Shown here in pieces: positions 15,052-64,000 of a stretch of 64,000 nt of DNA; position 1 is the stretch's first letter; the number at the start of each line of letters is the position of its first letter. Below the pieces are notes generated by a model. The model ran no database searches. It was not told where the DNA came from and saw only the letters and a list, made by a program, of their open reading frames with translations. The stretch is from an uncultured Bacteroidales bacterium (lineage in GTDB: Bacteria > Bacteroidota > Bacteroidia > Bacteroidales > FEN-979): NCBI GenBank assembly GCA_903916595.1, contig CAIWXI010000010.1, forward strand, positions 25,311 to 89,310, given 5' to 3'. The position numbers and the translations under genes are program-made.

Positions 15052-15098
15052 AGGATGAAATAATGTTTGGAGATTGCGAAAATACCTAATTTTGCTGC

Positions 15099-15713
15099 AT
15101 GAGCATAAAGACCCTTCAAAAACTGTTACTGACCGCATTAGTGTTTCTGACTATGGCAGCCTGCCAGATGACAAATCAGACAAAGACCGCGCTGAACCTG
15201 GCAAACTGCGAGTTTCGTCTCGTTTCGGCCGAGAATATCGTTATTGCCGGAATATCAATTGAAAACTATACTTCGGTGAAAGATCTCGGGGTAGGCGATT
15301 TTGCCATGTTCATGGGAGCGCTTACTCAGCCTGAACTGCCGCTTTCACTGCAGCTGAATATCGAAGTAAAAAATCCCAATCCTGCTCCGGCCGGAATAAA
15401 CAGTCTTGATTATATTGTTATTATTGATGACATTCAGATGCTTCAGGGTTCATATACCCAGCCCATTACCGTACCCGCATCCTCATCCGCAGTAATTCCT
15501 GTTCAACTGAACGTTGACCTGAAGCAGGCGCTGAAGGGCAAATCGATGGATGCCATTCTGAATTTTGGCTTTAATTTAGCTGGCGTTGGCCATCAACCCA
15601 CACGCTTTAAACTAAAGCTAAAACCCAGTATTCTGGTTGGAAGTACCGTTTTGGCTTATCCCGCCTATATTACCGTGAAGACCGAATACCAAAACGGAAA
15701 CGTGGTCAGGTAA
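15099..15713 (+). CDS. putative lipoprotein (LEA_2/WHy-like fold suspected)
   Basis: Lipobox 'FLTMAAC'. The domain assignment is only an impression from the sequence pattern. A TAATTTTG box (15087-15094) lies 4 nt upstream of the ATG. Confidence 0.5.
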   Translation: MSIKTLQKLLLTALVFLTMAACQMTNQTKTALNLANCEFRLVSAENIVIAGISIENYTSVKDLGVGDFAMFMGALTQPELPLSLQLNIEVKNPNPAPAGINSLDYIVIIDDIQMLQGSYTQPITVPASSSAVIPVQLNVDLKQALKGKSMDAILNFGFNLAGVGHQPTRFKLKLKPSILVGSTVLAYPAYITVKTEYQNGNVVR

Positions 15714-37265: not shown

Positions 37266-38093
37266 TTATTTTCGGAATTGGTACTGGATTGAGATGGCCG
37301 GACTGAATCCCAGCGTCTGATTGTATTCCGAGGCAAAATCGACAGAAAAACGATTGATCACAATACCAGCACCAATGCTAAGCCTGAAAGGGCTTGTTGC
37401 CATGCCGGCCCTGGCTGAGAGAATTCTGGCAAACCGGTACTCGGCACCTACTCTCGCACAGGTTTTGCTTACAGGATCTTTTTCTGCCTCAGCTGAAACC
37501 AGAAGCTCATCGGTAAAATTATAGGAAAGCCCAAGCTGAAAGAGAGTTGGCAGGGATTCCCCTGAGACCCGGGATAGTTTAACCGGAACCGGATTTATAC
37601 AATGAAATCCAATTGCAACATGTTTTCCCGGTTTGAACAACAAACCTGCCTCGCAGTTGAGAATGTTCCTGGAACCATTATTATCCGAAATATGGAAACG
37701 GTAATAATTCAGCTGCACCCCTGCCGAAAAATGCTTTCCGAATTTTCTTGCATACCCCAGCCCGGTTTTTAGTTCACTGTAGATGCTTGTTCCAAAATGA
37801 GTACAGGTAAATGAAAATGTACCGGGACTGATAGTGGCTGAGAATACAAGTGCTTTGGCAGACAGTTCCTTGACCATAAAACGGTTTTCAAAAAATATTC
37901 CGCAGAGAATTCCTTCGTTCCATGCATTTGAGCCCTGGTTGCTTATGGCCGACCAGTTGTCGGTCAATGCAACCGAGATCCCCGACATCCCGCTTGCACG
38001 GCCTCCGACCGGTCTCCATTCTCCTGCCGCATGCATGTTCAGCGAAAAGATTAATAACAGAAAGCCAGGCCCTTTACTCACGAACTTCCTCAT
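37266..38093 (-). CDS. small beta-barrel-like outer membrane protein, N-terminus embedded in a 12-bp repeat
   Basis: Start placed at ATG 38093 (MRKFVSKGPGFLLLIFSLNMHA signal peptide). The frame stays open to ATG 38141 through the repeat (MRKFAKKFVRKFVKKF...). Confidence 0.55.
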   Translation of the reverse strand: MRKFVSKGPGFLLLIFSLNMHAAGEWRPVGGRASGMSGISVALTDNWSAISNQGSNAWNEGILCGIFFENRFMVKELSAKALVFSATISPGTFSFTCTHFGTSIYSELKTGLGYARKFGKHFSAGVQLNYYRFHISDNNGSRNILNCEAGLLFKPGKHVAIGFHCINPVPVKLSRVSGESLPTLFQLGLSYNFTDELLVSAEAEKDPVSKTCARVGAEYRFARILSARAGMATSPFRLSIGAGIVINRFSVDFASEYNQTLGFSPAISIQYQFRK

Positions 38094-38142
38094 GAACTTC
38101 TTTACGAACTTCCTCACGAACTTCTTTGCGAACTTCCTCACG
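38079..38142. repeat. tandem 12-mer ([CT][AG][CT]GAACTTC[CT]T) x5.3, in frame with the 5' end of the OMP gene
   Basis: cacgaacttcct catgaacttctt tacgaacttcct cacgaacttctt tgcgaacttcct cacg. On the minus strand it encodes (R/K)KF(V/A/M)-type repeats. Confidence 0.9.
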
Positions 38143-38311
38143 TTTTTCCTCCCTTTCCTTTCTCCTTAATCCGCCATCATCCAAAAAGTAATACATCCCG
38201 GACCAAAAAATGTTGAAAAAATTATCGTGTACCATGAAAATTGATTAATTTTCCTGTCTGAATATTAACGAAGTTGCTGAAAATGAAGGTGTACTTCTTA
38301 AACCATATGCC

Positions 38312-44582: not shown

Positions 44583-44591
44583 ATATTATAA

Positions 44592-44634
44592 AATGGTGAA
44601 ATGGTGAAATGGTGAAATGGTGAAATGGTGAAAT
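44592..44634. repeat. tandem octamer (AATGGTGA) x5.4, left arm of a long repeat-armed hairpin
   Basis: Read directly. Begins 10 nt upstream of the LOG gene ATG on the coding strand. Confidence 0.95.
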
Positions 44635-44675: not shown

Positions 44676-44711
44676 ATTTCGCCATTTCGCTATTTCACCA
44701 TTTCACCATTT
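44676..44711. repeat. inverted octamer array (ATTTCGCC ATTTCGCT ATTTCACC ATTTCACC ATTT), right arm; overlaps the uvrA 3' end
   Basis: Reverse complement of the left-arm unit. Positions 44690-44710 encode the uvrA tail N-G-E-M-V-K-stop. Confidence 0.95.
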
Positions 44712-49115: not shown

Positions 49116-49151
49116 ATTTCGCTATTTCACCATTTCACCATTTCACCATTT
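49116..49151. repeat. tandem octamer array (ATTTCGCT ATTTCACC x3 ATTT) abutting the lpdA stop codon
   Basis: Same unit and same degenerate terminal unit as the 44676-44711 array. No inverted partner nearby. Confidence 0.95.
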
Positions 49152-50623: not shown

Positions 50624-51391
50624 TTAATGGCTGATACTTTTCACTTTATTATTATCAGGCGGCTGTGAGGATGAGGTTTGTCTGCTTAAGGTCATCATGA
50701 CTGCCGCGGCCAGAGTGGAGGTTGCCAGGCATGCGAAGAGGGCGATATAGCCGAAACCGGCAATCAGCTGCCCGCCCAGTAAAGGACCCAGGAAAAAACC
50801 TCCCTGCATCATGATCAGCAGAAGATTCTGGTTTAATGCTCGTGCCGGGGGTAATGAAATATCGAACATGGCCGCGGCCTGAAGGGGCATGGCAATTCCC
50901 CAGCCGAGGCCTGTAACAACCGCGAGGAAGAATAATATGGCGGCGGAATCCGCATATGGGACCAGGCGAACAAGAGATACATAGCCAAAGGCGCGGCCGC
51001 TCATTCCGGGAGGTATAAAGGGAATGAGCATGGTAATAAGGGAAGAAAGTACGCAGATGAACCCAGCTCCCTGCAGCAGGCGGGCTGCGATCAGCAGGGG
51101 AATGGCCGAGAGTTGGCCGAGCATGAACAATGACAGTGAGAACAGGATAGCACCGCCCAGAAGCCACCGGCGGGCATTGCCGGCATGAATAAGAGGAGTG
51201 ATCAGAGGCTGGACGATAAATGCCGCAAGTGAGTCGGCGCTTAAAATGAGACCTCCCGTGGCAGGGTTGAACCCCATTTGGCTTAGATAGCCTGAAAAAA
51301 GAAAAAAAAGTGCGGTAATTGTTGTGATCAGCCCAAACTGGAGATTGATCAACACAAAGCCGGGCGAGAGAAGTGTGGAACGTTCAGTCAT
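50624..51391 (-). CDS. MFS-type transporter, unusually short (255 aa; possible internal deletion or pseudogene)
   Basis: MFS loop-2/3-like 'HAGNARRWLLGG'. About 8 TM segments instead of 12. A C-terminal-half-like segment follows directly after about TM5. Confidence 0.45.
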   Translation of the reverse strand: MTERSTLLSPGFVLINLQFGLITTITALFFLFSGYLSQMGFNPATGGLILSADSLAAFIVQPLITPLIHAGNARRWLLGGAILFSLSLFMLGQLSAIPLLIAARLLQGAGFICVLSSLITMLIPFIPPGMSGRAFGYVSLVRLVPYADSAAILFFLAVVTGLGWGIAMPLQAAAMFDISLPPARALNQNLLLIMMQGGFFLGPLLGGQLIAGFGYIALFACLATSTLAAAVMMTLSRQTSSSQPPDNNKVKSISH

Positions 51392-51665: not shown

Positions 51666-51825
51666 GAAAGCCTTTTAACCTGATTTTATTCATCAAAAAA
51701 CCATACGCAAACTGAGCACCCTGAACGAAATAATTGCCCGATGTGAAGTACTGGCCTTTGACCTTTCTTTTTCCCGTGCAAAAGAATGGAAATCACAGAT
51801 TAGCAACAGGGTCCTCATCGGGCAT

Positions 51826-52875
51826 ATGCCGGTTTATTTTCCCCGTGAGATCATTCATGCTGCCAACGGTCTGGCCATAGGAATCCTGGGCGGAGGTGAT
51901 AAAAAACTGATCATCAAAGGCGATGCCTATTACCAGTCGTATATCTGCCATATGCCCCGCAGTATCATCGAGCTGGCTCTCGATAAGCATTTTGAAGGCT
52001 TCGACGGCTTCATTTTTCCTTCCATCTGCGATGTCATAAGGAACCTTTCCGGGATGTTCCAGCTGATGGAGATCGGTAAATTTGTCAAATACCTCGATTT
52101 TCCACAGAATTTTCTGCCCCACATTGGCGGTACCTTTTACCGGCATGAACTTCAGACGGTCCTCGATCAGGTCTATAAACTGAACGGGGTGGAAGTGACC
52201 GCCCAAAAGCTCAATCATTCCATAGGGCTGTTCAACTTAAACCGTCAGCTTATCTGCAAGTTGTATGACATCCGCCAGGAATTCCCATGGCGACTTACAG
52301 CTGCTGATGTTTACCATATAGTACGCGCTGGATATGTGATCCCCGTGGAAGAACATAATGAGATCCTTGAGGAAGTCATACGGCATATGCAAAAGGAATT
52401 CGGCGATCCTCTCGACAAGATCCGTGTTCTGGTGATCGGCGCTTTCTGTGAACAACCGCCGGCCGGACTGATCAAAACGATTGAACTGGCAGGCTGCTAT
52501 ATCGTAGAAGATGATTTCCTGCTTGGAGCCCGATGGATACAGGGTGATATTGATACTGCCGGATCAGATCCTTTAGGGGCAATTACTCAGGCTTACCTTG
52601 ATATGAGTACGTTCTCATCATCGGTTTATGATGTGGGTAATCCCAAGGAAGCCAGGCTGCTTCAGCTGATCAGGCAACGGAAGATCGACGGCGTGATCTT
52701 TGCCGCTCCGAGTTTTTGCGACCCTGCTTTACTTGACCATCCGATACTTCAAAAAGAATGTAATGACAAAGGCATCCGTTTTGTGAGCTTCCTCTACAGC
52801 GAAAATACGGGTCAGTTCAAGGTCATCAAGGAACAGGTTGGTACATTTTCTGATTCGATAAAGCTCTGGGACTGA
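51826..52875 (+). CDS. bcrC: benzoyl-CoA reductase subunit C-like (BcrC/BadD/HgdB family)
   Basis: 'PVYFPREIIHAANGLAIGILGGGD', 'YYQSYICHMPRS', 'FPSICDVIRN' and 'FAAPSFCDPALLDHP'. The first ATG is 51826, but family-typical sequence (LNEIIARCEVLAFDLSFSRAKEWK...) is in frame from 51679 with no ATG, GTG or TTG. Confidence 0.8.
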   Translation: MPVYFPREIIHAANGLAIGILGGGDKKLIIKGDAYYQSYICHMPRSIIELALDKHFEGFDGFIFPSICDVIRNLSGMFQLMEIGKFVKYLDFPQNFLPHIGGTFYRHELQTVLDQVYKLNGVEVTAQKLNHSIGLFNLNRQLICKLYDIRQEFPWRLTAADVYHIVRAGYVIPVEEHNEILEEVIRHMQKEFGDPLDKIRVLVIGAFCEQPPAGLIKTIELAGCYIVEDDFLLGARWIQGDIDTAGSDPLGAITQAYLDMSTFSSSVYDVGNPKEARLLQLIRQRKIDGVIFAAPSFCDPALLDHPILQKECNDKGIRFVSFLYSENTGQFKVIKEQVGTFSDSIKLWD

Positions 52876-52917: not shown

Positions 52918-54201
52918 ATGTCGAAAGAGGTTGCGAAAGAACGAAGCATGATCATCCAGAAAGAGATGATCACCCGGCAGTTTAAGGAACTGAGCATGGC
53001 CGGGGAGACAGGGAAGAAAGTGGTCTATACCTTCGTTCCGGGTAACATCTCCGAGTTGATCCTTTCGTTCGATATGCTGCCTGTATATCCCGAGATCAAT
53101 GCCTTGCAATCGGGAATGCGAAAAAAATCGGGTGGGTATATACGCGATGCCGAACAGCATGGTCATTCCGAAGATGTATGCACCTATGTGAAATGTGATG
53201 TTGGGATGATGCTGAGCGGGAATATAGGCCCCACGGGCGAAAAGATCCCGAAGCCGGATCTGCTGCTGCTTAGCTATACCGGCTGCTTTACGTTCATGAA
53301 ATGGTTTGAAACCCTCGAACGACTGTATCCCGGCGTCCCGGTTGCTATGCTCCATACTCCTTACCAGGAGGCCCATAAGATCACCCCCGAGATGACCGCC
53401 TATATGGTCAAACAGCTGAAGGAAGAAGTGATCCCGAAAATGGAAAAAGTTTCTGGGAATAAGTATGATGAAGAAAAACTGAAATCCATCCTCCGGAACT
53501 CTTCCAAAGTAGAGGATTATATTGTAAAGATCTTCGATACTACCAAACACAGGCCTTCTCCCATCGATGCCTATTTCGCCGGGGTGTATTATATAGGCCC
53601 CATCAACAGCGGCTTCAGGGGTACACCCCAGGCTGTTGATTATTATGCCGAGTTATATAAGGAGATACTTGAACGCATTGATAACAAGCTGGGGCCGATC
53701 ACTCCTGAGGGTGTGATGGAAGAAGAACGCTTCCGTCTGGTGGTGGAAGGCCCCCCAAACTGGACCCATTTTCGTGAATTCTGGAAACTTTTTTATGACA
53801 TGGGCGCCGTGATCGTGGCCTCTTCCTATACAAAAGTAGGAGGAGTGTACGATATGGGTTTCCGTGTCAATCCTGATAAACCCCTCGAAAGCCTGGCCGA
53901 ATACTGCATGAACTGCTACACTAATCTCAATCTTCAGCAACGTGTTGATCTTCTTTCCAAATGTATCACCGACTACCACGCCGACGGCTTCCTGGTAAAT
54001 TCAATTAAAAGTTGTAATTCATTCTCTGCAGGGCAATTGATGATTATGCAGAAACTGGAACGAAAGCTGGAAATACCTATTGGATTCATCGAATCCGACC
54101 TGGTCGATCCAAGATATTTCTCTTACTCGAATATCAAAAACAGGCTTGAATCATTTTTCCAGATGCTGGAGCAGAGGAAGATGATGAATATCCAGTCCTG
54201 A
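52918..54201 (+). CDS. bcrB: benzoyl-CoA reductase subunit B-like (BcrB/BadE/HgdA family)
   Basis: 'KVVYTFVPGNISELILSFDMLPVYPEINALQSGMRKKSGGYIRDAEQHGHSEDVCTYVKCDVGMM', 'YTGCFTFMKWFE' and 'NSIKSCNSFSAGQ'. Confidence 0.8.
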   Translation: MSKEVAKERSMIIQKEMITRQFKELSMAGETGKKVVYTFVPGNISELILSFDMLPVYPEINALQSGMRKKSGGYIRDAEQHGHSEDVCTYVKCDVGMMLSGNIGPTGEKIPKPDLLLLSYTGCFTFMKWFETLERLYPGVPVAMLHTPYQEAHKITPEMTAYMVKQLKEEVIPKMEKVSGNKYDEEKLKSILRNSSKVEDYIVKIFDTTKHRPSPIDAYFAGVYYIGPINSGFRGTPQAVDYYAELYKEILERIDNKLGPITPEGVMEEERFRLVVEGPPNWTHFREFWKLFYDMGAVIVASSYTKVGGVYDMGFRVNPDKPLESLAEYCMNCYTNLNLQQRVDLLSKCITDYHADGFLVNSIKSCNSFSAGQLMIMQKLERKLEIPIGFIESDLVDPRYFSYSNIKNRLESFFQMLEQRKMMNIQS

Positions 54202-54268: not shown

Positions 54269-55645
54269 ATGAAGAAATATTTTTTGGGAATAGATCTCGG
54301 ATCAACCACCTCCAAAGCCATCATCATTGATGATAATGACAGGATCATTGGTCGGGGAATTACCAACACAAGGGCAAATTATACGGTTGCCACCGAGATC
54401 GCAAGGCTCGAAGCCATCTATAATGCAAGGTTTTCGCTGCTTAAGATGAAGCTCGAAGATGAAATCGAAAGCAAACCCGAATACAAACGATATATAAAGG
54501 ATGTTGAATCCATTTTTCAATATCTGCAGTTCAAACGCAGGCTCGACCGCCTGAATGTGCAATTCAGGGATACTATCGACAGTACTTTCAGCGGAGAGAA
54601 GAAAGACAAAATCAGCGGATTTGTCGACCGGATCGTAAAAGAGATCGGCCCTGCCGTCCTCAATGAATACCTGACCGGGAACCTGGGCCAGAAGAATCAG
54701 TTCTTCAGGGATATTATAAGCGAAAAATACAATAAAGATGTAAACGCACTTCCTAAAGATTATTTTGAACCTACAATGCTTGTTTACGACAAGAGCATAA
54801 GCCATGTTGAAAATGAACTCACCGAATATGATTTCAGGGACCTGGTTTACCAGGCAATGGAACTGCTGAATGATAAATATTCGGGGATGGACGATTCCTC
54901 TCCTGAAGAGACCGGTGTTGGTTTTGATAGCGAGCTGAATCTCCTAAAAGGTAATTATAAGCATATTTACGACTCACTGAAAGAGCATATCAGTTTTGTG
55001 GCCAACCTTGATATCCACATAACCAATATGGTTGGTACCGGCTATGGCCGTGCCCTTCTGCCTTTCCCTGAGAAATCAATACGCTCGGAGATCCTTTGTC
55101 ACGCATTTGGGGCCCATGCAGTTTTTCCCAATACACGGACCGTTCTCGATATTGGCGGACAGGATACCAAGGCGATACAGGTCGACAGTCATGGACTAGT
55201 CACGAGTTTTTACATGAACGACCGCTGCGCTGCAGGTTGCGGGCGTTATCTGGGGTATATCGCCGACGAGTTCAGCATTTCGTTGAATGAACTGGGCCCC
55301 CTGGCCATGGAAGCCACCAATGAAGTGAATATCTGCTCTACATGTACTGTGTTTGCTGCTGCAGAGATCAGGGAGCTGCTAAACGTGGGACAGAAACGAT
55401 CGGACATCCTGGCTGGTTTGCACAGGGCCATCGTGATGCGGGCTATGTCGCTGCTTGCACGCTCGGGAGGGGTCAGGAATGAGTTTACATTTACCGGCGG
55501 CGTCGCCCGCAACCAGGCTGTGCTGAAATATGTTTCGGACCTGGTGCTGCAGAATTACGGCAAGGATATTACGATCAATGTGCATACCGATTCGATATTC
55601 ATGGGAGCCCTCGGTGGCGCCATGTTTGCCCGAAGGGGTGCATGA
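54269..55645 (+). CDS. bcrA: benzoyl-CoA reductase subunit A-like (BcrAD/BadFG ATPase, long form)
   Basis: 'LGIDLGSTTSKAII', cluster-ligand region 'NDRCAAGCGRYLG' and 'ICSTCTVFAAAE'. A roughly 200-aa insertion after the first ASKHA motif, as in BcrA-type subunits. Confidence 0.8.
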   Translation: MKKYFLGIDLGSTTSKAIIIDDNDRIIGRGITNTRANYTVATEIARLEAIYNARFSLLKMKLEDEIESKPEYKRYIKDVESIFQYLQFKRRLDRLNVQFRDTIDSTFSGEKKDKISGFVDRIVKEIGPAVLNEYLTGNLGQKNQFFRDIISEKYNKDVNALPKDYFEPTMLVYDKSISHVENELTEYDFRDLVYQAMELLNDKYSGMDDSSPEETGVGFDSELNLLKGNYKHIYDSLKEHISFVANLDIHITNMVGTGYGRALLPFPEKSIRSEILCHAFGAHAVFPNTRTVLDIGGQDTKAIQVDSHGLVTSFYMNDRCAAGCGRYLGYIADEFSISLNELGPLAMEATNEVNICSTCTVFAAAEIRELLNVGQKRSDILAGLHRAIVMRAMSLLARSGGVRNEFTFTGGVARNQAVLKYVSDLVLQNYGKDITINVHTDSIFMGALGGAMFARRGA

Positions 55646-55691
55646 AACATACAGGAATTATTTGAATAGCGGGCCCGGTTTCGGGAAAAAA

Positions 55692-56525
55692 ATGAAGAAA
55701 CAGGAAATTTATACCATAGGTGTCGACGTGGGCAGCAGTAACATCAAAGCTGTACTGATGGAGTATTCAGACCAGCCGGTCATTATTGATCAGCTCAGCG
55801 AAAGGATCAGGAAAAGAAACCCTGAAATGGTCGCCGATCAGCTTATTGATCTTATCCTTGAGAGAAATTCACTCAATTACAAGGACATCGCTTACCTCGC
55901 TTCTACAGGTGAAGGAGAAATGCTGATGCGGAAACGCGGGCATTTTTACAGCATGACAACCCATGCCAAAGGCGGCGTCTTCCTATGCCCGGGCTCAATG
56001 ACCGTTGTAGATATGGGCGCCCTGTATGTGAGGGCCATTAAAATAAATGAACTGGGAAGGGTGCTTGACTATAAGATGACCGGGCAATGCGCTTCCGGCT
56101 CAGGGCAGTTTATTGAAAACATTTCCCGTTACCTGGGTCTGGCTATCGATGATGTAGGACCCACATCCCTTAAATCGGTCACTCCTGAAACACCTTCAGG
56201 GATATGTTCAGTCCTTGCCGAAACCGATGTGATCAATATGGTGTCACGGGGAATATCCACACCCGATATCATCAAAGGAATCCATCTGTCGATAGCCAAT
56301 AAGATCGTCAAACTGCTGTCTTCACTCAAAGCTACTTCCCCGGTCGTCCTTACCGGCGGAATGGCTATGAATACCGGCATGATCCAGGCAGTGCAGGAAC
56401 TGATCGAAGAAAGTAAGATGAATCTTGAAATCAAGGCGCATCCCGATTCCATCTATTCAGGCGCTATCGGAGCGGCCATCTGGGGAGGCTTCCGATATTA
56501 TAAATTAAATCTGACCAGAAATTAA
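55692..56525 (+). CDS. bcrD: benzoyl-CoA reductase subunit D-like (BcrAD/BadFG ATPase, short form)
   Basis: Start moved to ATG 55692 (MKKQEIYTIGVDVGSSNIKAV...). 'MTGQCASGSGQFIE' and 'ICSVLAETDVINM'. Confidence 0.8.
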   Translation: MKKQEIYTIGVDVGSSNIKAVLMEYSDQPVIIDQLSERIRKRNPEMVADQLIDLILERNSLNYKDIAYLASTGEGEMLMRKRGHFYSMTTHAKGGVFLCPGSMTVVDMGALYVRAIKINELGRVLDYKMTGQCASGSGQFIENISRYLGLAIDDVGPTSLKSVTPETPSGICSVLAETDVINMVSRGISTPDIIKGIHLSIANKIVKLLSSLKATSPVVLTGGMAMNTGMIQAVQELIEESKMNLEIKAHPDSIYSGAIGAAIWGGFRYYKLNLTRN

Positions 56526-56552
56526 CAGGATTGGAACTTCAAATACCTTTCA

Positions 56553-58634
56553 ATGAACGACGCGCTTGATGCATTATTCAAACCCAGGGCCGTTGCGCTC
56601 ATCGGGGCTTCTGCCAAAGAACTCTCAATCGGCAATGTGATCATCAAAAACCTTATCCATTACAGGTTCAACGGTCCGGTTTATCCGATAAATCCTAAGG
56701 TGGATGAGATCCGTGGGCTGAAAGCATATCCCTCAATTCTTGATGTTCCGGGCGAAGTCGACCTGGCCCATATCGTAATCCCTCCTCCTTTTGTACCTGA
56801 AGAAGTTGAGAACTGCGGAAAGAAGGGAATCAAAGCCATCATTATAAATACAGCAGGGTTCAAGGAAATGGGTGCCGAAGGACAGGCACTGGAGAATGAC
56901 TTTCTCAAAAGGGCCGCAAAATATGGTATTCGCATCGTTGGCCCGAACTGCCAGGGGATCATTAATTCAGATCCGGCCATTAACGCCTATTGCAATTTTA
57001 CGTTTACCTTCCCTCATCCCGGACATATCTCTGTGGTAGCACAAAGCGGAGGAGTAGGAGCGGTCCTTATGCAGGCCTTTCATGATATGGGTGTAGGACA
57101 GCGGATGTATGCTTCCAATGGTAATGGGTCGGATGTTTCCATTACCGAATTCATCAGTTATTACGGAAAAGATGAAGAAACAAGGGCTATTGTGCTGTAT
57201 GCCGAAAGCCTTGGAAATCCTTTGGAGTTTATTGAAGTCGTAAAAAAAGTAACAGCACGTAAGCCGGTTCTTGCCATCACTGCAGGTAGGACTGATAAAG
57301 GCGCTGAAGCTTCAAGGTCGCATATTGGCGGATTGGCCGGCAGTATTTCAATGGATCTCATTTATAAAAAGGCTGGTATACTTACATTTCACAACCAGGA
57401 AGAGTTATGCCATGCAGCCGTGGCTTTATCCTCTCAGCCAGTCCCCAAAGGAAACAGGGTAGGTATCATAACAAATACTGGCGGGCCTTCGGTCATCGCC
57501 ATCGATGAGCTGGTGAGTTGCGGACTTACACTTCCACCCTTATCCGCCAATGCTATTGAAACCCTGAAAGGGACCATGCTTGAATCAGCATCTATAAGAA
57601 ATCCGCTGGATGTAGTTGCCACCGCCGGCCCTCTTCATTTCCGAAGTGCCCTCGAAGTAATGATGAACGAGGAACAGTATGATAGTATTTATCTGAACTT
57701 TGTTACTCCACCATTTGTTGATTGTGAAAGTGTTGCCCGGGAGATCACGTCAGCAGCCCGCGCAGGGAATAAGCCCGTCGTATGTAATTATATGACCGAT
57801 AAACAGGAATGGCGCTCTACTTCCGCTATTCTGAAAGAAGGAAAGATCCCCTGCTTTGATTTTGCTGAAACCGCTGCGAGGGCCTTGTATTCACTGGTTC
57901 GTTATAATTCTATCCTGTCATCAGAAAAAGGTAAAATAAAACTATTTGCTGATGTCGAAAAGGAGAGAGTCAGGATGATACTCACCGATGCCCATCATCA
58001 GAACAGGGAAGTGCTTTCGGCTCATGATGTATACTCAATTCTTGATGCCTATAAAATACCTGTTGCTCCATGGAAAGTTGCATCAGATGTGAAAGAGGTA
58101 GTCTATGTGGCAGGTCAGATTGGCTTTCCGGTCGTAATAAAAGCCGACTCTGAACAGATCATTCATAAAAGTGATGTAGGAGGTGTTGCTGTTAACATTA
58201 TGACTACTGCTGAAGCAAATGCTGCAGTTGAGAAAATGAAAAGTACTCTGGGTGGCGGAATGAGGTTTCTGGTCCAGAAATGTCTTGTCCCGGGCAGGGA
58301 ACTTATTATTGGTGCGAAAGCTTCTCCGGGCACCGGGCCTATCATCATGTTCGGCCTTGGTGGGATCTTTGTCGAAGTCCTGAAAGATGTTGCCTTTGCC
58401 ATCAGCCCGCTAAGTGATACCGAAGCCAGCGAAATGATCAGCTCAATTAAAGCTGCAGCCCTGATCAACGGTTTCAGAGGGCAAAAAGGAATCAATAAGG
58501 CAAAAACTGTTGAGATAATTCAACGGATATCTATGCTTTGCAACGATTTTCCAATAATTAAAGAGCTTGACCTTAATCCTTTGTTTGCAACGGGCGACGA
58601 TATATGCGTTGTGGATGCAAGGATTATTCTTTAG
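56553..58634 (+). CDS. ADP-forming (NDP-forming) acyl-CoA synthetase, fused alpha-beta type
   Basis: CoA-binding N-terminus 'AVALIGASAKELSIGNVIIKNL...VYPINPK'. Phosphohistidine segment 'EASRSHIGGLAGS'. C-terminal ATP-grasp 'GFPVVIKADSEQIIHKSDVGGVAVNI'. Confidence 0.85.
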   Translation: MNDALDALFKPRAVALIGASAKELSIGNVIIKNLIHYRFNGPVYPINPKVDEIRGLKAYPSILDVPGEVDLAHIVIPPPFVPEEVENCGKKGIKAIIINTAGFKEMGAEGQALENDFLKRAAKYGIRIVGPNCQGIINSDPAINAYCNFTFTFPHPGHISVVAQSGGVGAVLMQAFHDMGVGQRMYASNGNGSDVSITEFISYYGKDEETRAIVLYAESLGNPLEFIEVVKKVTARKPVLAITAGRTDKGAEASRSHIGGLAGSISMDLIYKKAGILTFHNQEELCHAAVALSSQPVPKGNRVGIITNTGGPSVIAIDELVSCGLTLPPLSANAIETLKGTMLESASIRNPLDVVATAGPLHFRSALEVMMNEEQYDSIYLNFVTPPFVDCESVAREITSAARAGNKPVVCNYMTDKQEWRSTSAILKEGKIPCFDFAETAARALYSLVRYNSILSSEKGKIKLFADVEKERVRMILTDAHHQNREVLSAHDVYSILDAYKIPVAPWKVASDVKEVVYVAGQIGFPVVIKADSEQIIHKSDVGGVAVNIMTTAEANAAVEKMKSTLGGGMRFLVQKCLVPGRELIIGAKASPGTGPIIMFGLGGIFVEVLKDVAFAISPLSDTEASEMISSIKAAALINGFRGQKGINKAKTVEIIQRISMLCNDFPIIKELDLNPLFATGDDICVVDARIIL

Positions 58635-58669: not shown

Positions 58670-59629
58670 ATGGAAAACAAGAATTATAAGATCGGGATCA
58701 TCGGATTAGGGCCCATAGGCCATACTTTAGCCGTGCATTTCAAGCATGCAGGATGTGAAGTTGCTATTACTGACCTTGACAGGGGCAAGCTCAGCCTGAT
58801 CATGCAGGAAGGGATCGAATTAGTTAACCGTCTTGAGAAAAAATCTTTTTTCAAACATGTTTACTATTCACTGGAGGAGATGCTTGAACATGATTTTGAC
58901 ATTCTCATCTCCGCTGTAAAAGATTATCATGTCGATCATATTGTCCAGGTCATTAAACGTAATCTCAAGAAAGATGTGTTCCTGCTGAGCGCTCAAAACG
59001 GGATTGACGTCAGAAAAAAATACCTCGCTCATTTTCCGAACTCATCAATCCTCAGGATGGTGATCAATTTTGCCGGGAACCTTCAGGCACCGAATGTAAC
59101 GGCGATTAGCTTTTTTAATCCTCCTAATTACATTGGTTCAATGGATGATTCACAGGAGGAGTTGGCAAAATGGGTTGCTGCAACATTATCAAGTGTGGGC
59201 ATGAAAACAGAACAGGCAAATTCATTCACAATTATCGACAAGATATGGGAAAAGACTATTCTTAACGCGGCTCTCAGTCCGCTCTGCGCCATATCCCGTC
59301 TTACCATGAAAGAAGCCATGAACAATGGCGATACCCTGGAAATTATCGAACAGATACTGTATGAAGCAGTACAGGTTGCTAATGCCGAAGAAATAAAGCT
59401 CCCCGACAATTTTATCAAACTGGCGATACGTTACCTCAGCAATGCAGGGAATCATATGCCATCCCTTGCCGTTGACCTTATAAATAACCGGGAGACCGAG
59501 ATCGACTTCATGAACGGGAAAATCGTTGAATACGGAAGAAAACATTATATAAAAACCCCAATAAACCTTGTTCTTACCAACCTCGTCAATGCCATCTCCT
59601 GCAAAAACGGAGTCGGGAAATGTAAGTAA
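58670..59629 (+). CDS. 2-dehydropantoate 2-reductase (PanE/ApbA) family oxidoreductase
   Basis: Rossmann motif 'KIGIIGLGPIGHTLA'. ApbA_C-like 'MPSLAVDLINNRETEIDFMNGKIVEYGRKHYIKTPINLVL'. Confidence 0.75.
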   Translation: MENKNYKIGIIGLGPIGHTLAVHFKHAGCEVAITDLDRGKLSLIMQEGIELVNRLEKKSFFKHVYYSLEEMLEHDFDILISAVKDYHVDHIVQVIKRNLKKDVFLLSAQNGIDVRKKYLAHFPNSSILRMVINFAGNLQAPNVTAISFFNPPNYIGSMDDSQEELAKWVAATLSSVGMKTEQANSFTIIDKIWEKTILNAALSPLCAISRLTMKEAMNNGDTLEIIEQILYEAVQVANAEEIKLPDNFIKLAIRYLSNAGNHMPSLAVDLINNRETEIDFMNGKIVEYGRKHYIKTPINLVLTNLVNAISCKNGVGKCK

Positions 59630-59675
59630 ATCGTACATCGTACATCGTACATCGTACTTCGCACATCGTACATCG
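59630..59675. repeat. tandem heptamer (ATCGTAC) x6.5 immediately after the PanE-like stop codon, inside the cluster
   Basis: atcgtac x4, ttcgcac, atcgtac, atcg, read directly. Confidence 0.95.
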
Positions 59676-59697: not shown

Positions 59698-60759
59698 ATG
59701 AAAAAAATATTGTTCTCCTTCCAAATGACCGCTCCCGATGCTGATTTTCAGCTTACCGAAAGCGTATTACCTGTCCCTGCCGAACATGAAGCCCTTGTAA
59801 AAATAGCAGGCTGCGGTGTTTGTCATACCGACCTCAGCTTCTGGCATCACGGAGTGAAAACAAAGAAAGAACTTCCTCTTACACTGGGGCACGAAATCAG
59901 CGGAACCGTTGTTGCTGGTCCTGCTCAATGGCTTGGAAAAAATGTGATCATTCCGGCTGTTTTGCCATGCGGGGAATGTGAATTATGCCGTAAAGGCAGA
60001 AGTAATATGTGCCAGAAACAACTTATGCCGGGGAATGATTTCAATGGTGGCTTTGCTTCACATATCCTTGTTCCGTCGAGATTTCTTTGCGAAGTGCCGG
60101 ATTCCCTGTTGTCAAAATATTCCCTTGAAAAATTATCGGTCATCGCCGATGCCATTTCAACTCCTTACCAGGTCATTAAAAAGTCGGAACTCGAAGCAGG
60201 TGATTTTGCTATCGTGATCGGAGTGGGAGGTGTTGGCATTTATGCTGCGCTGATTGCACGTATATTCGGTGCTAAGGTGTTAGCTCTCGATATCGATGAT
60301 AATAAGCTTGAAACAGCGAAGAAGCATGGAATTGACGCAGTACTGAACATAAAAGGCCTGGATATAAAAGCGATCAAGGAAAACGTAAGGGAAATAGCGA
60401 AAGGGCTCGGAGTTTCACGTTACGGATGGAAGATTTTCGAGATGTCGGGAACCAAACCCGGACAGGAACTCGGATTTAATCTGATCACCTTCACCTCAAC
60501 CCTGTCAATCGTGGGGTTCACTCTCGACCGGACTGAAGTTCGCCTGAGTAACCTGATGGCGTTTGATGCAAAAGTCATAGGGACCTGGGGCTGTAAACCG
60601 GAACTTTATCCCGAAGTCGTGGATCTTATCGCCACAGGCAAGTTGAAGATCGATGATTTTATTGAAACTTTTCCCTTGTCAAAGATCAACGAAGTGTTCC
60701 GGAATACCCTGAACCATATGTATTCAAAGAGATCGGTACTGGTCCCGGATTTTGATTAA
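59698..60759 (+). CDS. had: 6-hydroxycyclohex-1-ene-1-carbonyl-CoA dehydrogenase-like (Zn-dependent MDR family)
   Basis: 'GCGVCHTDLSFWHHGV...PLTLGHEISGTVV', structural-Zn 'CGECELCRKGRSNMC' and 'VIGVGGVGIYA'. Size and position next to oah and dch support the call. The ORF track begins at GTG 59695. Confidence 0.7.
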   Translation: MKKILFSFQMTAPDADFQLTESVLPVPAEHEALVKIAGCGVCHTDLSFWHHGVKTKKELPLTLGHEISGTVVAGPAQWLGKNVIIPAVLPCGECELCRKGRSNMCQKQLMPGNDFNGGFASHILVPSRFLCEVPDSLLSKYSLEKLSVIADAISTPYQVIKKSELEAGDFAIVIGVGGVGIYAALIARIFGAKVLALDIDDNKLETAKKHGIDAVLNIKGLDIKAIKENVREIAKGLGVSRYGWKIFEMSGTKPGQELGFNLITFTSTLSIVGFTLDRTEVRLSNLMAFDAKVIGTWGCKPELYPEVVDLIATGKLKIDDFIETFPLSKINEVFRNTLNHMYSKRSVLVPDFD

Positions 60760-60786: not shown

Positions 60787-61878
60787 ATGTTAGCAAGTCA
60801 CAATCTTACGGAATTCAGTTACAAGGCGATACTGTTCGAAAAACGTCCCTGTCTCGACCATGGCGGTAAGCCCGTAGAAGGGTTGTTTAATGCCTGGATC
60901 ATTCTCAACAACCCCCAGCAGTTCAACTCATATACAACCGAAGCGGTCAAGGAGGTGATCCTTGCGATGCGTGAAGCCTCGAACGATCGCAGCGTGGTTG
61001 CCATAGTCTTTACTGCGGTAGGCGACAAGGCTTTCTGTACTGGTGGCAACACCAGGGAGTATGCCGAATATTATGCCGGAAACCCCCAGGAATACAAGCA
61101 ATACATGCGTTTGTTCAACGATATGGTTTCTGCTATTCTGATGAACGACAAGCCGGTTGTTTGCCGGGTCAACGGGATGAGGATAGGGGGCGGACAGGAG
61201 ATTGGTATGGCCTGTGATTTTTCAATTGCCCAGGATTTTGCGAGATTCGGGCAGGCCGGTCCTAAGCACGGAAGCGCACCCGACGGGGGATCCACCGACT
61301 TCCTTCCGCTTTTTGTCGGAATTGAAAGTGCCATGTTCTCCTGTACAGTTTGTGATCCGTGGTCAGCCTACGAAGCCCTGAAAGGCGGATTGCTGACCGA
61401 AGTGGTCCCGGCCCTGAAAGTCAATGGTGAATTTATTCCCAATCCGCTTGTTTATACCGATCAGTGGGTGAACAGCAAGGGGCAGATCATCTATGGAAAA
61501 TCCAAAACAGGAGAGGAACTCGCCAAAGCAAAAGAACTGGTGAAAACAGGCGTGATGGATCTCGCGATGCTGGATATGGCCGTTGAGAAATTTTGTACCA
61601 GGCTGATGTACCTTATGCCCAACTGCCTTAGTAAAACCCTCAATTCCCTCAGAAAACATAAACTCGAGCATTGGGATAAGAACAAGGAAAGCAACCGTGA
61701 CTGGCTGGCACTGAACATGATGACCGAAGGCAAAGCCGGTTTCCGCGCTTTCAACGACGGTCCCAAAGATAAGCGGGAAGCTGATTTTATCAAACTCAGG
61801 CAGATGCTTGCCCAGGGCCATGAATGGAATGATGACCTCATTAAAGCCATATCCCCCCAGTTTCAGGAAACAAAATAA
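60787..61878 (+). CDS. oah: 6-oxocyclohex-1-ene-1-carbonyl-CoA hydrolase (ring-cleaving crotonase, Oah/BamA)
   Basis: 'PQQFNSYTTEA', 'CTGGNTREYAEYYAGNPQEYKQYMRLFNDMV' and 'NGMRIGGGQEIGMACDF'. At 363 aa it is much longer than ordinary enoyl-CoA hydratases. Confidence 0.85.
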   Translation: MLASHNLTEFSYKAILFEKRPCLDHGGKPVEGLFNAWIILNNPQQFNSYTTEAVKEVILAMREASNDRSVVAIVFTAVGDKAFCTGGNTREYAEYYAGNPQEYKQYMRLFNDMVSAILMNDKPVVCRVNGMRIGGGQEIGMACDFSIAQDFARFGQAGPKHGSAPDGGSTDFLPLFVGIESAMFSCTVCDPWSAYEALKGGLLTEVVPALKVNGEFIPNPLVYTDQWVNSKGQIIYGKSKTGEELAKAKELVKTGVMDLAMLDMAVEKFCTRLMYLMPNCLSKTLNSLRKHKLEHWDKNKESNRDWLALNMMTEGKAGFRAFNDGPKDKREADFIKLRQMLAQGHEWNDDLIKAISPQFQETK

Positions 61879-61889: not shown

Positions 61890-62663
61890 ATGCAAAAGAT
61901 CAAAGTAGAATACCTGTACGACAATGCCGTGGCCAGGGTCATACTTGACGATGGCAAAGCCAATATCCTCGACAGCATCATGATGAGCGAGATCAATGAT
62001 TTCCTTACATCATTGAAAGATAAAAAGGAGGTCAAGCTGATCACCTTCGAAGGCGCCGGAAATAATTTTTCATATGGCGCCAGTGTGGCAGAGCACACCA
62101 AAGATAAGGCTGCGGAGATGCTGGATAGTTTCCATAAAATGTTCTTTTTACTTATCGGATTGCATATTCCCACTTTGGCCAAATTGTCGGGGAATTGCCT
62201 TGGCGGTGGATTTGAGCTGCCCCTGGCCTGTAATTTCATTTTCGCCGATAAGACTGCCAGGATCGGGCAGCCTGAGGTCATCCTGGGAGTGTTCGCTCCT
62301 CCGGCTTCAGTGATACTGCCGCTTAAAGTGGGCAATACAAGGGCCGAAGAACTGCTGATCACCGGAAGAGTTATTACGGCAGATGAAGCTAAAAATATCG
62401 GACTGGTCAATGATGTCTTCGACGACAGGGCCAGCCTCGATGCTGCCGTGGAGGCGTGGATACAAAAGAATATTCTTCCGAAAAGCGCTTCTGCACTCAG
62501 ATTTGCGACCCGGGCTGCCAGGGCCTCATTTGATTTCTTTATGCTGAAACATCTGCCGGCTTTCGCCGATATGTACGTTAAGGAAATGATGGAAACCCAT
62601 GATGCCAATGAAGGAATTAATTCATTTCTCGAAAAGAGAAAACCTGAATGGAAAAACTGTTAA
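61890..62663 (+). CDS. dch: cyclohexa-1,5-diene-1-carbonyl-CoA hydratase-like enoyl-CoA hydratase
   Basis: Crotonase fold 'FEGAGNNFSYGASVAEH' and 'GNCLGGGFELPLACNFIFA...IGQPEVILGVFAP'. 257 aa, adjacent to oah. Confidence 0.7.
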   Translation: MQKIKVEYLYDNAVARVILDDGKANILDSIMMSEINDFLTSLKDKKEVKLITFEGAGNNFSYGASVAEHTKDKAAEMLDSFHKMFFLLIGLHIPTLAKLSGNCLGGGFELPLACNFIFADKTARIGQPEVILGVFAPPASVILPLKVGNTRAEELLITGRVITADEAKNIGLVNDVFDDRASLDAAVEAWIQKNILPKSASALRFATRAARASFDFFMLKHLPAFADMYVKEMMETHDANEGINSFLEKRKPEWKNC

Positions 62664-63913
62664 ACATGAGTGAACCAATAATCCAGGAAAAAAGCGAGCT
62701 TGTAAAGCTGCAATCGGCCGGCGAATTACGAAAGACCATGGATGGGTATTTCTCCCGTCTGAGGGAAGCAGCCGAAACCGGAGTAAGAAAAGTCGCCTGG
62801 TGCACCAGTGTCGGACCTGCCGAACTCTTATATTCCATGGGCTTCGAGGTGTATTTCCCCGAGAACCACGGAGCTATGCTTGGCGCCGGAAAGAATGCCG
62901 ATAAATACATCCCCTCGGCCGTCGCCCATGGGTATTCTCCCGAGATCTGCTCTTACCTCACCAGCGACATAGGCGCCTTCCTGCAAAACGAAACCCCGCT
63001 TCAGAAAAGCGGGTTCAAGTCGGTACCCAAACCCGATGTGCTGGTCTACAATACGAACCAGTGCAGGGAAGTTGCCGACTGGTTTGGCTTTTATGCCAGG
63101 CATTTTAATGTGCCCATTCTTGGTATTCATACCCCTCTTTGTATTCCTGAACTCACCCCGGAAATAATAAAAACGGTAGCGGATCAGTACCGGAACATAA
63201 TTCCCTCACTGGAGCAGGTCGCCGGACGAAAATTCGACATGGACCTGTTCAGGCAGGCAGTGGCGCTTTCGCACGACGGCTGCGTTCTGTGGAAAGAGAT
63301 CCTGGGGAAAGCAAAGCACAGGCCTTCACCCATCAATTTCTTCGATTCGGCCATCCATATGGGCCCTATCGTAGTGATGCGGGGAACTCAATACGCCGTG
63401 GATTATTATAAAGTACTCCTGGCCGAGCTGGATCAAAGGATACAGGATGGGATCAGCGCCGTACCTCATGAAAAACACAGAATTTACTGGGAAGGCATGC
63501 CCCTCTGGTATAAACTCAGCAGCATGGCCAAGTTGTTTTCCAAATTTAATACCAGCATAGTCGCCTCCACATACTGCAACAGCTGGGTATTCGACGACCT
63601 TGACCCTGCCGATCCATTTGAATCCTCGGCTCTTGCTTATTGCAAACTGTTCATCGTAAGGTCTGATGCAGTCAAGGAAGACATCCTTCAGCAACTGATG
63701 ATCGATTTTTCGGTGGATGGCATTATCTACCATGAATCAAAGACCTGTACAAGGAACTCTAACAACCTGTTCGGCTTGCAGAACCGGCTGTTCAAAAAGA
63801 CCCGGCTGCCCTTCATAGAAATTAACGGAGATCTCAATGACCCCCGTTGTTTCAGTGAAGAGCAAAGCATCATCGCAATTGAAACATTCATACATCAACT
63901 TTCCGGCAGATGA
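62648..63913 (+). CDS. additional 2-hydroxyacyl-CoA dehydratase / benzoyl-CoA reductase family subunit (HgdA/BcrB-like paralogue)
   Basis: 'KVAWCTSVGPAELLYSMGFEVYFPENHGAMLGA', 'YSPEICSYLTSDIG', 'NTNQCREVADWF' and 'YHESKTCTRNSNN'. 16-nt overlap with dch; an alternative ATG lies at 62666. Confidence 0.75.
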   Translation: MEKLLNMSEPIIQEKSELVKLQSAGELRKTMDGYFSRLREAAETGVRKVAWCTSVGPAELLYSMGFEVYFPENHGAMLGAGKNADKYIPSAVAHGYSPEICSYLTSDIGAFLQNETPLQKSGFKSVPKPDVLVYNTNQCREVADWFGFYARHFNVPILGIHTPLCIPELTPEIIKTVADQYRNIIPSLEQVAGRKFDMDLFRQAVALSHDGCVLWKEILGKAKHRPSPINFFDSAIHMGPIVVMRGTQYAVDYYKVLLAELDQRIQDGISAVPHEKHRIYWEGMPLWYKLSSMAKLFSKFNTSIVASTYCNSWVFDDLDPADPFESSALAYCKLFIVRSDAVKEDILQQLMIDFSVDGIIYHESKTCTRNSNNLFGLQNRLFKKTRLPFIEINGDLNDPRCFSEEQSIIAIETFIHQLSGR

Positions 63914-63923
63914 TAAACCACAA

Positions 63924-64000
63924 TTCGTACATCGTACATCGTACATCGTACATCGTACATCGTACATCGTACATCGTACATCGTACATCGTACATCGTTT
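63924..64000. repeat. tandem heptamer (ATCGTAC) x at least 10.5, running to the window edge
   Basis: ttcgtac followed by nine atcgtac units, then atcgttt at the window end. Same orientation as the 59630 array. Confidence 0.95.

Follow-up and report, generated by a model that had tools for sequence, protein, structure and literature searches.

The stretch of DNA analysed here (hereafter the window) comprises 64,000 nucleotides from an uncultured Bacteroidales bacterium (assembly GCA_903916595.1, contig CAIWXI010000010.1, positions 25,311 to 89,310) and carries a predicted NDP/ADP-forming acyl-CoA synthetase (ACD) gene within a cluster of benzoyl-CoA degradation genes. The ACD gene begins after a 27-nt spacer downstream of bcrD (bcrD stop TAA at 56523-56525, ACD ATG at 56553), and these coordinates agree with the distance given in an earlier, model-made description of the same DNA (hereafter the sequence-only reading). 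The gene and the segments of it that bear on function are listed here.

56553..58634, plus strand: ACD gene, NDP/ADP-forming acyl-CoA synthetase, fused alpha-beta, 693 aa, ATG start; predicted from its Pfam architecture
56940..56957, plus strand: GPNCQG motif; Asn132 aligns with N376 of 9y43 (a phosphate and 3-hydroxypropionate contact), Gln134 is clade-specific
57114..57134, plus strand: SNGNGSD motif of the active-site loop, in place of generic (V/L/I)GN(K/R)AD
57312..57344, plus strand: phosphohistidine swinging-loop segment SRSHIGGLAGS (aa 254-264); His257 codon at 57321-57323, Ile258 replacing the usual Thr
57471..57488, plus strand: TNTGGP motif at the N-terminus of the power helix; N308, G310 and G311 align with N555, A557' and G558' of 9y43, Thr309 is clade-specific
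58158..58175, plus strand: IIHKSD of the ATP-grasp domain; its His538 is the second catalytic histidine and corresponds to H535 of Nmar_0206 in the alignment

By every sequence criterion the predicted protein belongs to the ACD superfamily, and the sequence-only reading was correct in describing a fused alpha-beta enzyme with CoA-binding, phosphohistidine and ATP-grasp parts. The Pfam domains follow one another in the order CoA_binding/CoA_binding_2 (aa 10-138), Succ_CoA_lig (156-291), Ligase_CoA_2 (303-440) and ATP-grasp_5 (480-693), they all exceed their gathering thresholds (PF13380/PF02629, PF13607, PF19045 and PF13549), and the five-subdomain architecture of the superfamily is present; alpha then beta, fused, is the predicted layout of NDP-forming acyl-CoA synthetases. 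His257 aligns with H256 of Nmar_0206, H503 of Nmar_1309 and H292 of DddX, as expected of the histidine of the swinging loop, and the counterpart of His538 is H535 of Nmar_0206, as expected of a two-histidine relay (PMC11494057). Residues H257, H538, K530, E671, D673 and N675, which include the ATP-grasp lysine and the Mg-binding residues, are invariant across the clade alignment. The enzyme thus appears to be catalytically intact and to belong to a distinct and widespread bacterial clade. An identical protein is present in 131 blocks of the contig collection.

The best match of the ACD in the PDB is 8wzu (433 bits over aa 8-691), the 4-hydroxybutyrate-CoA ligase Nmar_0206 of Nitrosopumilus maritimus, which is the closest solved relative and has the same alpha-then-beta order. 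This enzyme and the 3-hydroxypropionate-CoA ligase of Nitrosopumilus (354 bits) rank ahead of archaeal acetate ACDs, DddX and Pat. In the latter ligase (Nmar_1309, 9y43), unlike in the window ACD, the ATP-grasp part comes first (PMC13018889). Both archaeal enzymes are hydroxy-acid ligases with both catalytic histidines and save one ATP equivalent relative to AMP-forming enzymes, but they act in an autotrophic cycle and carry generic motifs (GPNCLG or GPNCIG; GN(K/R); SNAGGP) rather than GPNCQG, SNGNGSD and TNTGGP. The ACD fell below every NCBIfam equivalog cutoff by a wide margin, including those for acetate ACDs (TIGR02717, 438 bits against a cutoff of 567; NF045494, 461 against 1200) and for the ADP-forming 4-hydroxybutyrate-CoA ligase (NF045493, 518 against 1300). 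Neither a PF00501 AMP-binding domain nor its P-loop motif was found in the protein, and it therefore does not resemble BclA, BadA or BamY, which take the same logical place in benzoyl-CoA clusters (activation of the acid) but have the unrelated PF00501 fold and convert ATP to AMP and PPi. We also considered a Pat/PatZ-like acetyltransferase and rejected it because no GNAT domain was matched, the protein ending with ATP-grasp_5 at aa 693; Pat chains scored only 240 bits.

In 9y43, the residues that contact phosphate and 3-hydroxypropionate are N376, S411-T413, position 434, N555, A557', G558', D602' and D636' (PMC13018889). We transferred these published contacts and those of DddX onto the ACD by hand from phmmer alignments and used the mapping at the level of motifs only, as 'V434' of the 9y43 paper corresponds to a Gly at residue 434 in our own count. 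The 9y43 contacts fall on the clade motifs listed above and on a clade-conserved FVTPPFVDC segment, which suggests that the acyl-phosphate site of the clade has been remodelled. The motifs distinguish the clade from generic ACDs: GPNCQG occurs in 93 of 96 module-clade members and in about 5 of 144 generic ACD representatives (which have Met, Leu, Val or Ile at the Gln position), TNTGGP in 84 of 96 and 1 of 144, respectively, and SNGN(A/G)(C/S)D in 88 of 96, the generic form being (V/L/I)GN(K/R)AD. None of the generic site-I motifs (GPNC[MLVI]G, TN[AG]GGP and [VLI]GN[KR]AD) is found in the ACD. The site appears to be more polar and to have lost a basic residue, which argues against acetate as the substrate, and neither curated cutoffs nor active-site motifs would place the ACD among the acetate-type enzymes. 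With acetate-forming ACDs (ckcACD, 4xyl; Pyrococcus horikoshii PH0766, 2csu; TIGR02717) it shares superfamily, fold, swinging loop and two-histidine relay, but it differs from them in this site and in its operon with radical-enzyme genes. A non-acetate substrate has precedent in the superfamily in DddX, an ATP-dependent dimethylsulfoniopropionate (DMSP) lyase (7cm9) that has no acetate or propionate activity and whose acyl site lies at the dimer interface (PMC8163506), although DddX matches the ACD at only 261 bits, cleaves its own CoA-ester and has other specificity residues. Next to the catalytic His, the window ACD has Ile (SHIG, 57321-57326), as do 37 of 44 ACDs in the tier of at least 64 % identity, whereas nearly all deeper relatives and the characterised ACDs have Thr (SHTG).

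The genes around the ACD are predicted to form a Thauera-type class I benzoyl-CoA reductase (BCR) set, bcrCBAD with dch, had and oah, in which the ACD is a conserved and co-oriented member. The bcr, had and oah neighbours are bona fide, and the embedding of the ACD in a benzoyl-CoA cluster, as first described, is thus upheld. The part of this island beyond the window end was read from a 189-kb contig of the same population (L031), and the whole island spans about 30 kb.

50624..51391, minus strand: MFS-type transporter ORF, 255 aa (PF07690, MFS_1), divergent from the island and bcrC
51712..52875, plus strand: bcrC (TIGR02263, 410 bits, best match just under cutoff, from profile position 36); probable CTG start
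52918..54201, plus strand: bcrB (TIGR02260, 643 bits, above the cutoff of 487)
54269..55645, plus strand: bcrA, ATPase subunit (TIGR02259, 425 bits, best match just under cutoff; PF01869)
55662..56525, plus strand: bcrD, ATPase subunit (TIGR02261, 320 bits, above the cutoff of 313), called as 277 or 287 aa
58670..59629, plus strand: PanE/ApbA (ketopantoate-reductase family) NAD(P)H oxidoreductase (TIGR00745, 167 bits, above the cutoff of 141; its PDB matches belong to the KPR family)
59626..59675, no strand: (GTACATC)7 tandem array in the spacer between the panE-like gene and had
59725..60759, plus strand: had, 6-hydroxycyclohex-1-ene-1-carbonyl-CoA dehydrogenase (TIGR03201, 444 bits, above the cutoff of 339); alternative GTG start at 59695
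60787..61878, plus strand: oah, 6-oxocyclohex-1-ene-1-carbonyl-CoA hydrolase (TIGR03200, 577 bits, above the cutoff of 464)
61890..62663, plus strand: dch-like dienoyl-CoA hydratase (TIGR03189 as best match, 217 bits, below the cutoff of 292)
62648..63913, plus strand: HgdX, a single HGD-D-family subunit, HadB-like (PF06050; 220 bits to the HadB model against 159 to the BcrB model), overlapping dch by 16 nt
63925..63998, no strand: (TCGTACA)10.6 tandem array of the same heptamer family, in the spacer between HgdX and the activase gene; several public contigs end here
L031:11382-12152, just past the window end: BcrAD_BadFG/HgdC-type activase of HgdX (TIGR00241, 161 bits, above the cutoff of 125)

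Past HgdX, the L031 contig carries the activase followed by a thiolase, a FadB-like fusion protein, an acyl-CoA dehydrogenase, MocA-like and XdhC maturation factors and a xanthine-dehydrogenase-family enzyme. The acyl-CoA dehydrogenase best matches the model of the Desulfococcus-type non-decarboxylating glutaryl-CoA dehydrogenase (272 bits, under cutoff), and a full-length orthologue of the molybdoenzyme large subunit scores 612 bits to the alpha subunit of 4-hydroxybenzoyl-CoA reductase (1rm6_A), with the next structure at 365.

The sequence-only reading had stated that no AMP-forming ligase lies in the window, and our searches bear this out: no PF00501 domain was found in any window ORF of at least 150 aa, and neither the strict PROSITE pattern of the AMP-binding P-loop nor a relaxed motif, which we added because the strict pattern can miss aryl-CoA ligases, gave a match in the window or across 528 kb of related loci. 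Nor did the 10 kb of L031 past the window end contain such a ligase, and no CoA-transferase was found in the island (window plus L031 extension). These absences hold for the window, the island of about 30 kb and the flanks of about 10 kb in relatives. The accompanying premise that known benzoate pathways use an AMP-forming ligase was incomplete, as CoA-transferases are low-cost activators of benzoate or hydroxybenzoate in Geobacter and Sporotomaculum. Aryl-specific ACD II isoenzymes are known from archaea. ADP-forming activation of aromatic acids has also been described for FCS1, an NDP-forming feruloyl-CoA synthetase that has been shown biochemically to act as a phenylpropanoid-acid ligase in lignin-derived aromatic catabolism and that its authors relate to the Sphingobium SYK-6 enzyme (PMC6388921).

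Several features of the island are recorded in their own right. In 12 of 14 orthologues, bcrC begins with a TTG that lies 38 codons 5' of the first ATG (51826 in the window). The window has no ATG, GTG or TTG there (51682-51828); a CTG (51712-51714) occupies the position of the orthologues' TTG codon and the in-frame upstream peptide is conserved, which suggests that the start codon is either non-canonical or mutated. BcrC is shortened to 349 aa by gene callers. The divergent MFS ORF (50624-51391, minus strand) has roughly half the length normal for its kind, and its product may be a truncated transporter or a half-size one. Three intergenic arrays belong to one heptamer family (GTACATC/GATGTAC, 7-10 copies; 13501-13564, 59626-59675 and 63925-63998), two of them inside island spacers. 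Several public contigs break at these arrays, and the depth of contigs from an RNA run reaches 439 at 63609-64000. The arrays look strain-variable, because a related strain has another unit (CGTGATT) at the same place.

The sequence was found in a single RNA run, stored as contigs, from one lake-water metatranscriptome. Contigs 95-100 % identical to the window cover bcrC-bcrD, the ACD gene, had/oah and HgdX, and one of 203 nt corresponds to 56391-56593, that is, the 3' end of bcrD, the spacer and the 5' end of the ACD gene. No terminator-like hairpin was found in the spacers flanking the ACD gene. These contigs suggest that bcrD and the ACD gene may be co-transcribed, as had been proposed for checking, and they span the junction without amounting to proof of a single transcript; the evidence is weak because depth was low, the contigs have no strand information and DNA may have been carried over.

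We compared the gene neighbourhood across relatives of the ACD. The closest reference genomes are metagenome-assembled genomes (MAGs) of uncultured Bacteroidales or Prolixibacteraceae-like bacteria from lakes, fens, permafrost and groundwater, and the gene order bcrCBAD-ACD-PanE-had-oah-dch-HgdX is kept in about 20 species-level MAGs. A search with the clade alignment returned 80 loci at 56 % identity or more, from Bacteroidota, Ignavibacteriota, Planctomycetota, Aminicenantes, Fischerbacteria, Fibrobacterota, Anaerolineae and Desulfobacterota, with the cultured Geobacter argillaceus among them. In G. argillaceus the ACD is WP_145023331.1, HgdX is WP_145023329.1 and the activase is WP_145023327.1; other carriers of the module include CP070637.1 (Ignavibacterium sp. 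bin94) and JAVSMQ010000001.1 (Kapaibacterium). Neighbours were counted in the 63 species-level loci where 4 kb or more of sequence flanks the ACD gene on either side: HgdX was present in 57, the PanE-like gene in 50, the activase in 49, had in 41, bcrB of class I BCR in 34 and an AMP-forming ligase in 2. In the tier of 55-64 % identity, 35 of 36 loci have HgdX, usually directly adjoining the ACD gene, and in 32 it lies within 3 kb. Unbiased clustering of neighbouring ORFs from 97 loci ranked the same families highest (HGD-D family 77, BcrAD family 77, PanE 75, had 53, oah 46 and bcrC 38), and CoA-transferase families were absent from the frequent neighbours. Even distant ACDs (41-44 % identity) stand in HGD-D-activase-ACD(-PanE) arrangements, and a relative at 39 % identity has no HGD-D, activase or PanE partners. 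The constant partners of the ACD across phyla are thus HgdX, the activase and the PanE-like protein, and not BCR as such.

The conservation of this arrangement bears on the possibility that the gene is a housekeeping acetate-forming ACD or a Pat-like regulator that came to lie in the island by chance. The public database labels of the ACD ('acetate--CoA ligase family protein' or 'acetyltransferase') would fit such an origin, but dozens of species-level genomes in several phyla keep the gene in this position, and the missing GNAT domain, the scores below the acetate-ACD cutoffs and the clade-specific active-site motifs all point away from it. A chance location is rejected on the synteny statistics, and we regard this explanation as very improbable.

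The kind of reductase beside the ACD, HgdX, activase and PanE-like genes varies: it may be Thauera-type, Bzd-type, class II BamB, or none. BamB was confirmed by a score of 1237 bits to 4z3w and replaces bcrCBAD in several close relatives, together with HdrD-, MvhD- and NuoF-like partners. It lies at the same chromosomal position upstream of the ACD gene in L003, L016, L025, L044 and L047, and L006 carries both classes, which looks like a swap of reductase class within one family-level lineage. In a neighbour-joining tree, which is effectively unrooted (the long-branch, module-free L042 served as a mental outgroup only), linkage to HgdX is found on all major branches and reductase type is patchy. 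Two further observations concern single sets of loci: in the 56-58 % tier, L075 (13335-13811) and 18 further loci encode, between HgdX and the PanE-like protein, a conserved 159-aa protein that has no Pfam match and is absent from the window, and one MAG has a Bro-N-domain gene, of a kind found in phages or mobile elements, separating bcrD from the ACD gene (L020:8619-9473).

Does the ACD, then, activate benzoate (or 4-hydroxybenzoate) itself, as an ADP-forming CoA ligase whose product goes straight to BCR, replacing BclA/BadA at half the activation cost? Its position suggests so, as it lies directly 3' of bcrD in both Bacteroidota tiers and after bcrD-actX-HgdX in Ignavibacteriota, and so do the association of the clade with all three kinds of benzoyl-CoA reductase and the absence of an AMP-binding ligase from 61 of 63 loci, the window and the extended island, which has no CoA-transferase either. 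The HcrA-like enzyme of the island would need 4-hydroxybenzoyl-CoA, FCS1 demonstrates that the superfamily has a member activating aromatic acids, and the window tier has its own SHIG variant. However, a benzoate ligase would leave no role for the more faithfully linked HgdX, activase and PanE-like genes. In addition, the ACD and HgdX are paired in 12 loci that lack genes for ring reduction or ring cleavage in the vicinity, one of them a biosynthetic island. The nearest sister lineage (56 %) encodes HGD-D, ACD, an AMP-binding ligase, a PanE-like protein and an activase beside true had and oah, and because the ACD and the AMP-forming ligase adjoin there, the two are not simple alternatives; the latter enzyme (in locus L035) is a generic PRK06187-type acyl-CoA ligase that does not correspond to the benzoate-CoA ligase model, and it demonstrates coexistence rather than substrate. 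A direct benzoate ligase is therefore unlikely in our view. Of the original proposal, the cheaper, ADP-forming activation step remains plausible because the ACD is a conserved island member of non-acetate type, the island has neither AMP-forming ligase nor CoA-transferase and an RNA contig crosses the bcrD-ACD junction, whereas its tie to benzoate and BCR specifically is loosened by the counts (bcrB in 34 of 63 loci against HgdX in 57 of 63).

The partner enzymes offer hints as to the substrate. HgdX matches the alpha subunit of 2-hydroxyisocaproyl-CoA dehydratase best among PDB entries (3o3m_A, 170 bits), followed by the BCR subunits MbdO (115) and BzdO (92); it has five invariant cysteines (C52, C101, C139, C310 and C367), and its score of 220 bits to the HadB model compares with a cutoff of 750. 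Of the components expected of an (R)-2-hydroxyacyl-CoA dehydratase system, the activase is present (TIGR00241), the heterodimer of alpha and beta subunits is not, there being one HGD-D gene per module, and a cognate CoA-transferase was absent from the module neighbours, with the ACD in its place. The PanE-like protein is proposed to be a reductase of 2-oxoacids to (R)-2-hydroxyacids; NADH-dependent D-mandelate and D-2-hydroxyisocaproate dehydrogenases are members of its KPR family. Genes for an HcrA-like molybdoenzyme and for its maturation turn up repeatedly around the module (MobA and XdhC in 22-23 loci), aminotransferases occur in 7 loci, with a D-amino-acid transaminase in the sister-lineage locus L035, and solute or uptake transporters lie beside the module in L040, L017 and L035. 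In Geobacter sp. (L104), actX-HgdX-ACD is followed by a thiolase, an enoyl-CoA hydratase, a 3-hydroxyacyl-CoA dehydrogenase, a CoA-transferase, a PaaK-type ligase and an IorA-type arylpyruvate oxidoreductase. Taken together, these hints point to the uptake or formation of aryl-2-oxo or aryl-2-hydroxy acids and their conversion to arylacryloyl-CoA.

One of the 12 loci mentioned above is informative about direction. In L041 (GCA_026393975.1, JAPKZD010000025.1), whose ACD is one of the distant relatives at 41-44 % identity, HGD-D-activase-ACD-PanE lies among genes for an acyl carrier protein (ACP), two ketosynthases, a LolA-like protein, an LpxL-type acyltransferase, a GT2 and an MMPL protein, and the usual adenylating starter enzyme is missing from the island. 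By its gene content this appears to be a lipid or polyketide biosynthetic island, in which harvesting ATP would make no sense; presumably it resembles aryl-polyene-type clusters.

This matters for the possibility that the ACD runs in the ATP-forming direction on a thioester of the pathway, either acetyl-CoA or, with HgdX and the PanE-like enzyme working in reverse, (R)-2-hydroxyglutaryl-CoA. In the latter variant, glutaconyl-CoA would be hydrated to (R)-2-hydroxyglutaryl-CoA, which would yield ATP and 2-oxoglutarate and possibly a source of low-potential electrons for BCR. The hydroxyglutarate pathway is made up of such components as HgdX, the activase, a 2-oxoacid reductase and aminotransferases, the best model for the island acyl-CoA dehydrogenase is of a glutaconyl-CoA-producing type (the Desulfococcus match given above), and ACDs of fermenters typically convert acyl-CoA to acid and ATP. 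The superfamily includes enzymes working in both directions (PMC6388921). Nevertheless, the scores of the ACD lie below the acetate-ACD cutoffs and its active-site motifs are not of the acetate type, the module also occurs in the lipid island and beside uptake transporters, the Geobacter context points to arylpyruvates, and HadB is the best characterised relative of HgdX among the enzymes compared. We consider ATP formation quite improbable.

The reading that we prefer, to which we give about an even chance, is that the ACD is the ADP-forming ligase of a module leading from 2-oxoacid to (R)-2-hydroxyacid, 2-hydroxyacyl-CoA and enoyl-CoA. It would thus probably activate the acid substrate of HgdX cheaply (one ATP to ADP) rather than simply replace a benzoate-CoA ligase. 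The PanE-like enzyme would reduce a 2-oxoacid to the (R)-2-hydroxyacid. ATP would then phosphorylate His538 of the ACD, the phosphoryl group would pass to His257 on the swinging loop, and an acyl-phosphate and then the 2-hydroxyacyl-CoA would be formed with release of ADP and Pi, so that the ACD would stand in for the CoA-transferase of clostridial 2-hydroxyacyl-CoA dehydratase systems. Work in the ligase direction has precedents within the superfamily in the 4-hydroxybutyrate- and 3-hydroxypropionate-CoA ligases and in FCS1. HgdX, primed by the activase, would eliminate the alpha-hydroxyl group to give the enoyl-CoA. The substrates in this island are probably aryl-pyruvates or aryl-lactates (phenyl or 4-hydroxyphenyl), in which case the FadB-like enzyme and the thiolase of the island would shorten the cinnamoyl- or coumaroyl-CoA to benzoyl-CoA or its 4-hydroxy analogue, the HcrA-like molybdoenzyme would remove the hydroxyl group of this analogue, and BcrCBAD, Dch, Had and Oah would take over from there. 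Net activation would be needed because the thioester is carried on downstream and not recycled by a transferase, and the formation of ADP would halve the cost of activation relative to an AMP-forming ligase. In its most general form, the proposal is of a four-gene module in strict anaerobes of many phyla that converts 2-oxoacids derived from aromatic amino acids to arylacryloyl-CoA for one ATP to ADP and feeds either the benzoyl-CoA pathway, with any reductase type, or starter units of lipids and polyketides; this we put forward only tentatively.

Several points weigh against the activation of HgdX's substrate by the ACD. The direction of the ACD reaction, its substrate class and the chemistry of HgdX are all inferred from gene context and sequence, as is the evidence throughout. 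In the window tier, the ACD gene adjoins bcrD and the PanE-like gene but lies about 4 kb from HgdX, and the change from Thr to Ile next to the catalytic His in this tier could mark a shift to a BCR-linked role. To our knowledge, all characterised 2-hydroxyacyl-CoA dehydratases are heterodimers, and HgdX may catalyse other chemistry because the module has a single HGD-D gene. The FadB-like protein, the thiolase and the acyl-CoA dehydrogenase lend no specific support to beta-oxidation of a side chain, because the lower benzoyl-CoA pathway needs them anyway. Finally, ACDs are reversible, and in fermenters usually run toward the acid and ATP.

The proposed module follows the logic of the clostridial HadA-I-BC, FldA-I-BC with FldH, and HgdCAB with GctAB systems, in which a 2-oxoacid reductase, CoA activation and an activase-primed HGD-D dehydratase lead to an enoyl-CoA, but it differs from them in having an ADP-forming ligase, one HGD-D gene and a KPR-family reductase instead of a CoA-transferase and an alpha-beta heterodimer. 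In the phenyllactate dehydratase system, for instance, it is the FldA transferase, a member of the FldABC complex, that supplies CoA (PMC13416013). That an aromatic acid is activated with formation of ADP is not in itself new, since FCS1, compared here at the level of domains, has the same Pfam architecture as the window ACD. FCS1 belongs, however, to aerobic Sphingomonadales, acts on cinnamate-type acids that then pass to a hydratase/lyase, and has no link to HGD-D, activase or BCR.

The rest of the window holds housekeeping and glycan-degradation genes (fucosidase, GH38, sulfatase, SASA esterase, SurA). The combination of a glycan-degrader profile at 1496-15138 (SASA esterase, alpha-L-fucosidase with PA14, GH38 and sulfatase) with a class I BCR island is unusual for Bacteroidales. 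Octamer tandem arrays of AAATGGTG and its reverse complement ATTTCACC occur at 44591-44634, 44676-44711 and 49116-49151, the first two as an inverted pair about 40 bp apart between a LOG-like gene and uvrA. A 12/24-bp tandem repeat, CTCACGAACTTC, lies at 38073-38151, at the 5' end of a DUF5723-like ORF (37266-38141, minus strand), and would encode a short N-terminal peptide repeat.

Our literature search returned no paper combining '2-hydroxyacyl-CoA dehydratase' with 'ADP-forming'. Three things appear to be undescribed in the literature searched: a conserved link between an ACD and three partners, namely a single-subunit HGD-D enzyme, an activase and a KPR-type reductase; the inclusion of this module in benzoyl-CoA islands of all three reductase types; and its occurrence in those Bacteroidota and Ignavibacteriota that have class I BCR. 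Because members of the clade are annotated as 'acetate--CoA ligase' or 'acetyltransferase', metagenome-based models of carbon flow would mis-assign them to an acetate/ATP step. Class I ring reduction costs 2 ATP per ring, which together with AMP-forming activation (2 ATP equivalents) has been thought unaffordable for fermenters; if our reading is true, ADP-forming activation would explain the class I reductases in uncultured Bacteroidota and Ignavibacteriota of lakes, fens and permafrost. The cultured carrier Geobacter argillaceus makes the question testable. The module would then be a new funnel, or entry route, to the benzoyl-CoA pathway, perhaps one that starts from aromatic amino acids or aryl-lactates, and HgdX the first 2-hydroxyacyl-CoA-dehydratase-like enzyme to be built from one subunit type and served by a ligase rather than a CoA-transferase, which would represent a new solution to CoA activation for the Buckel-type radical dehydratases.

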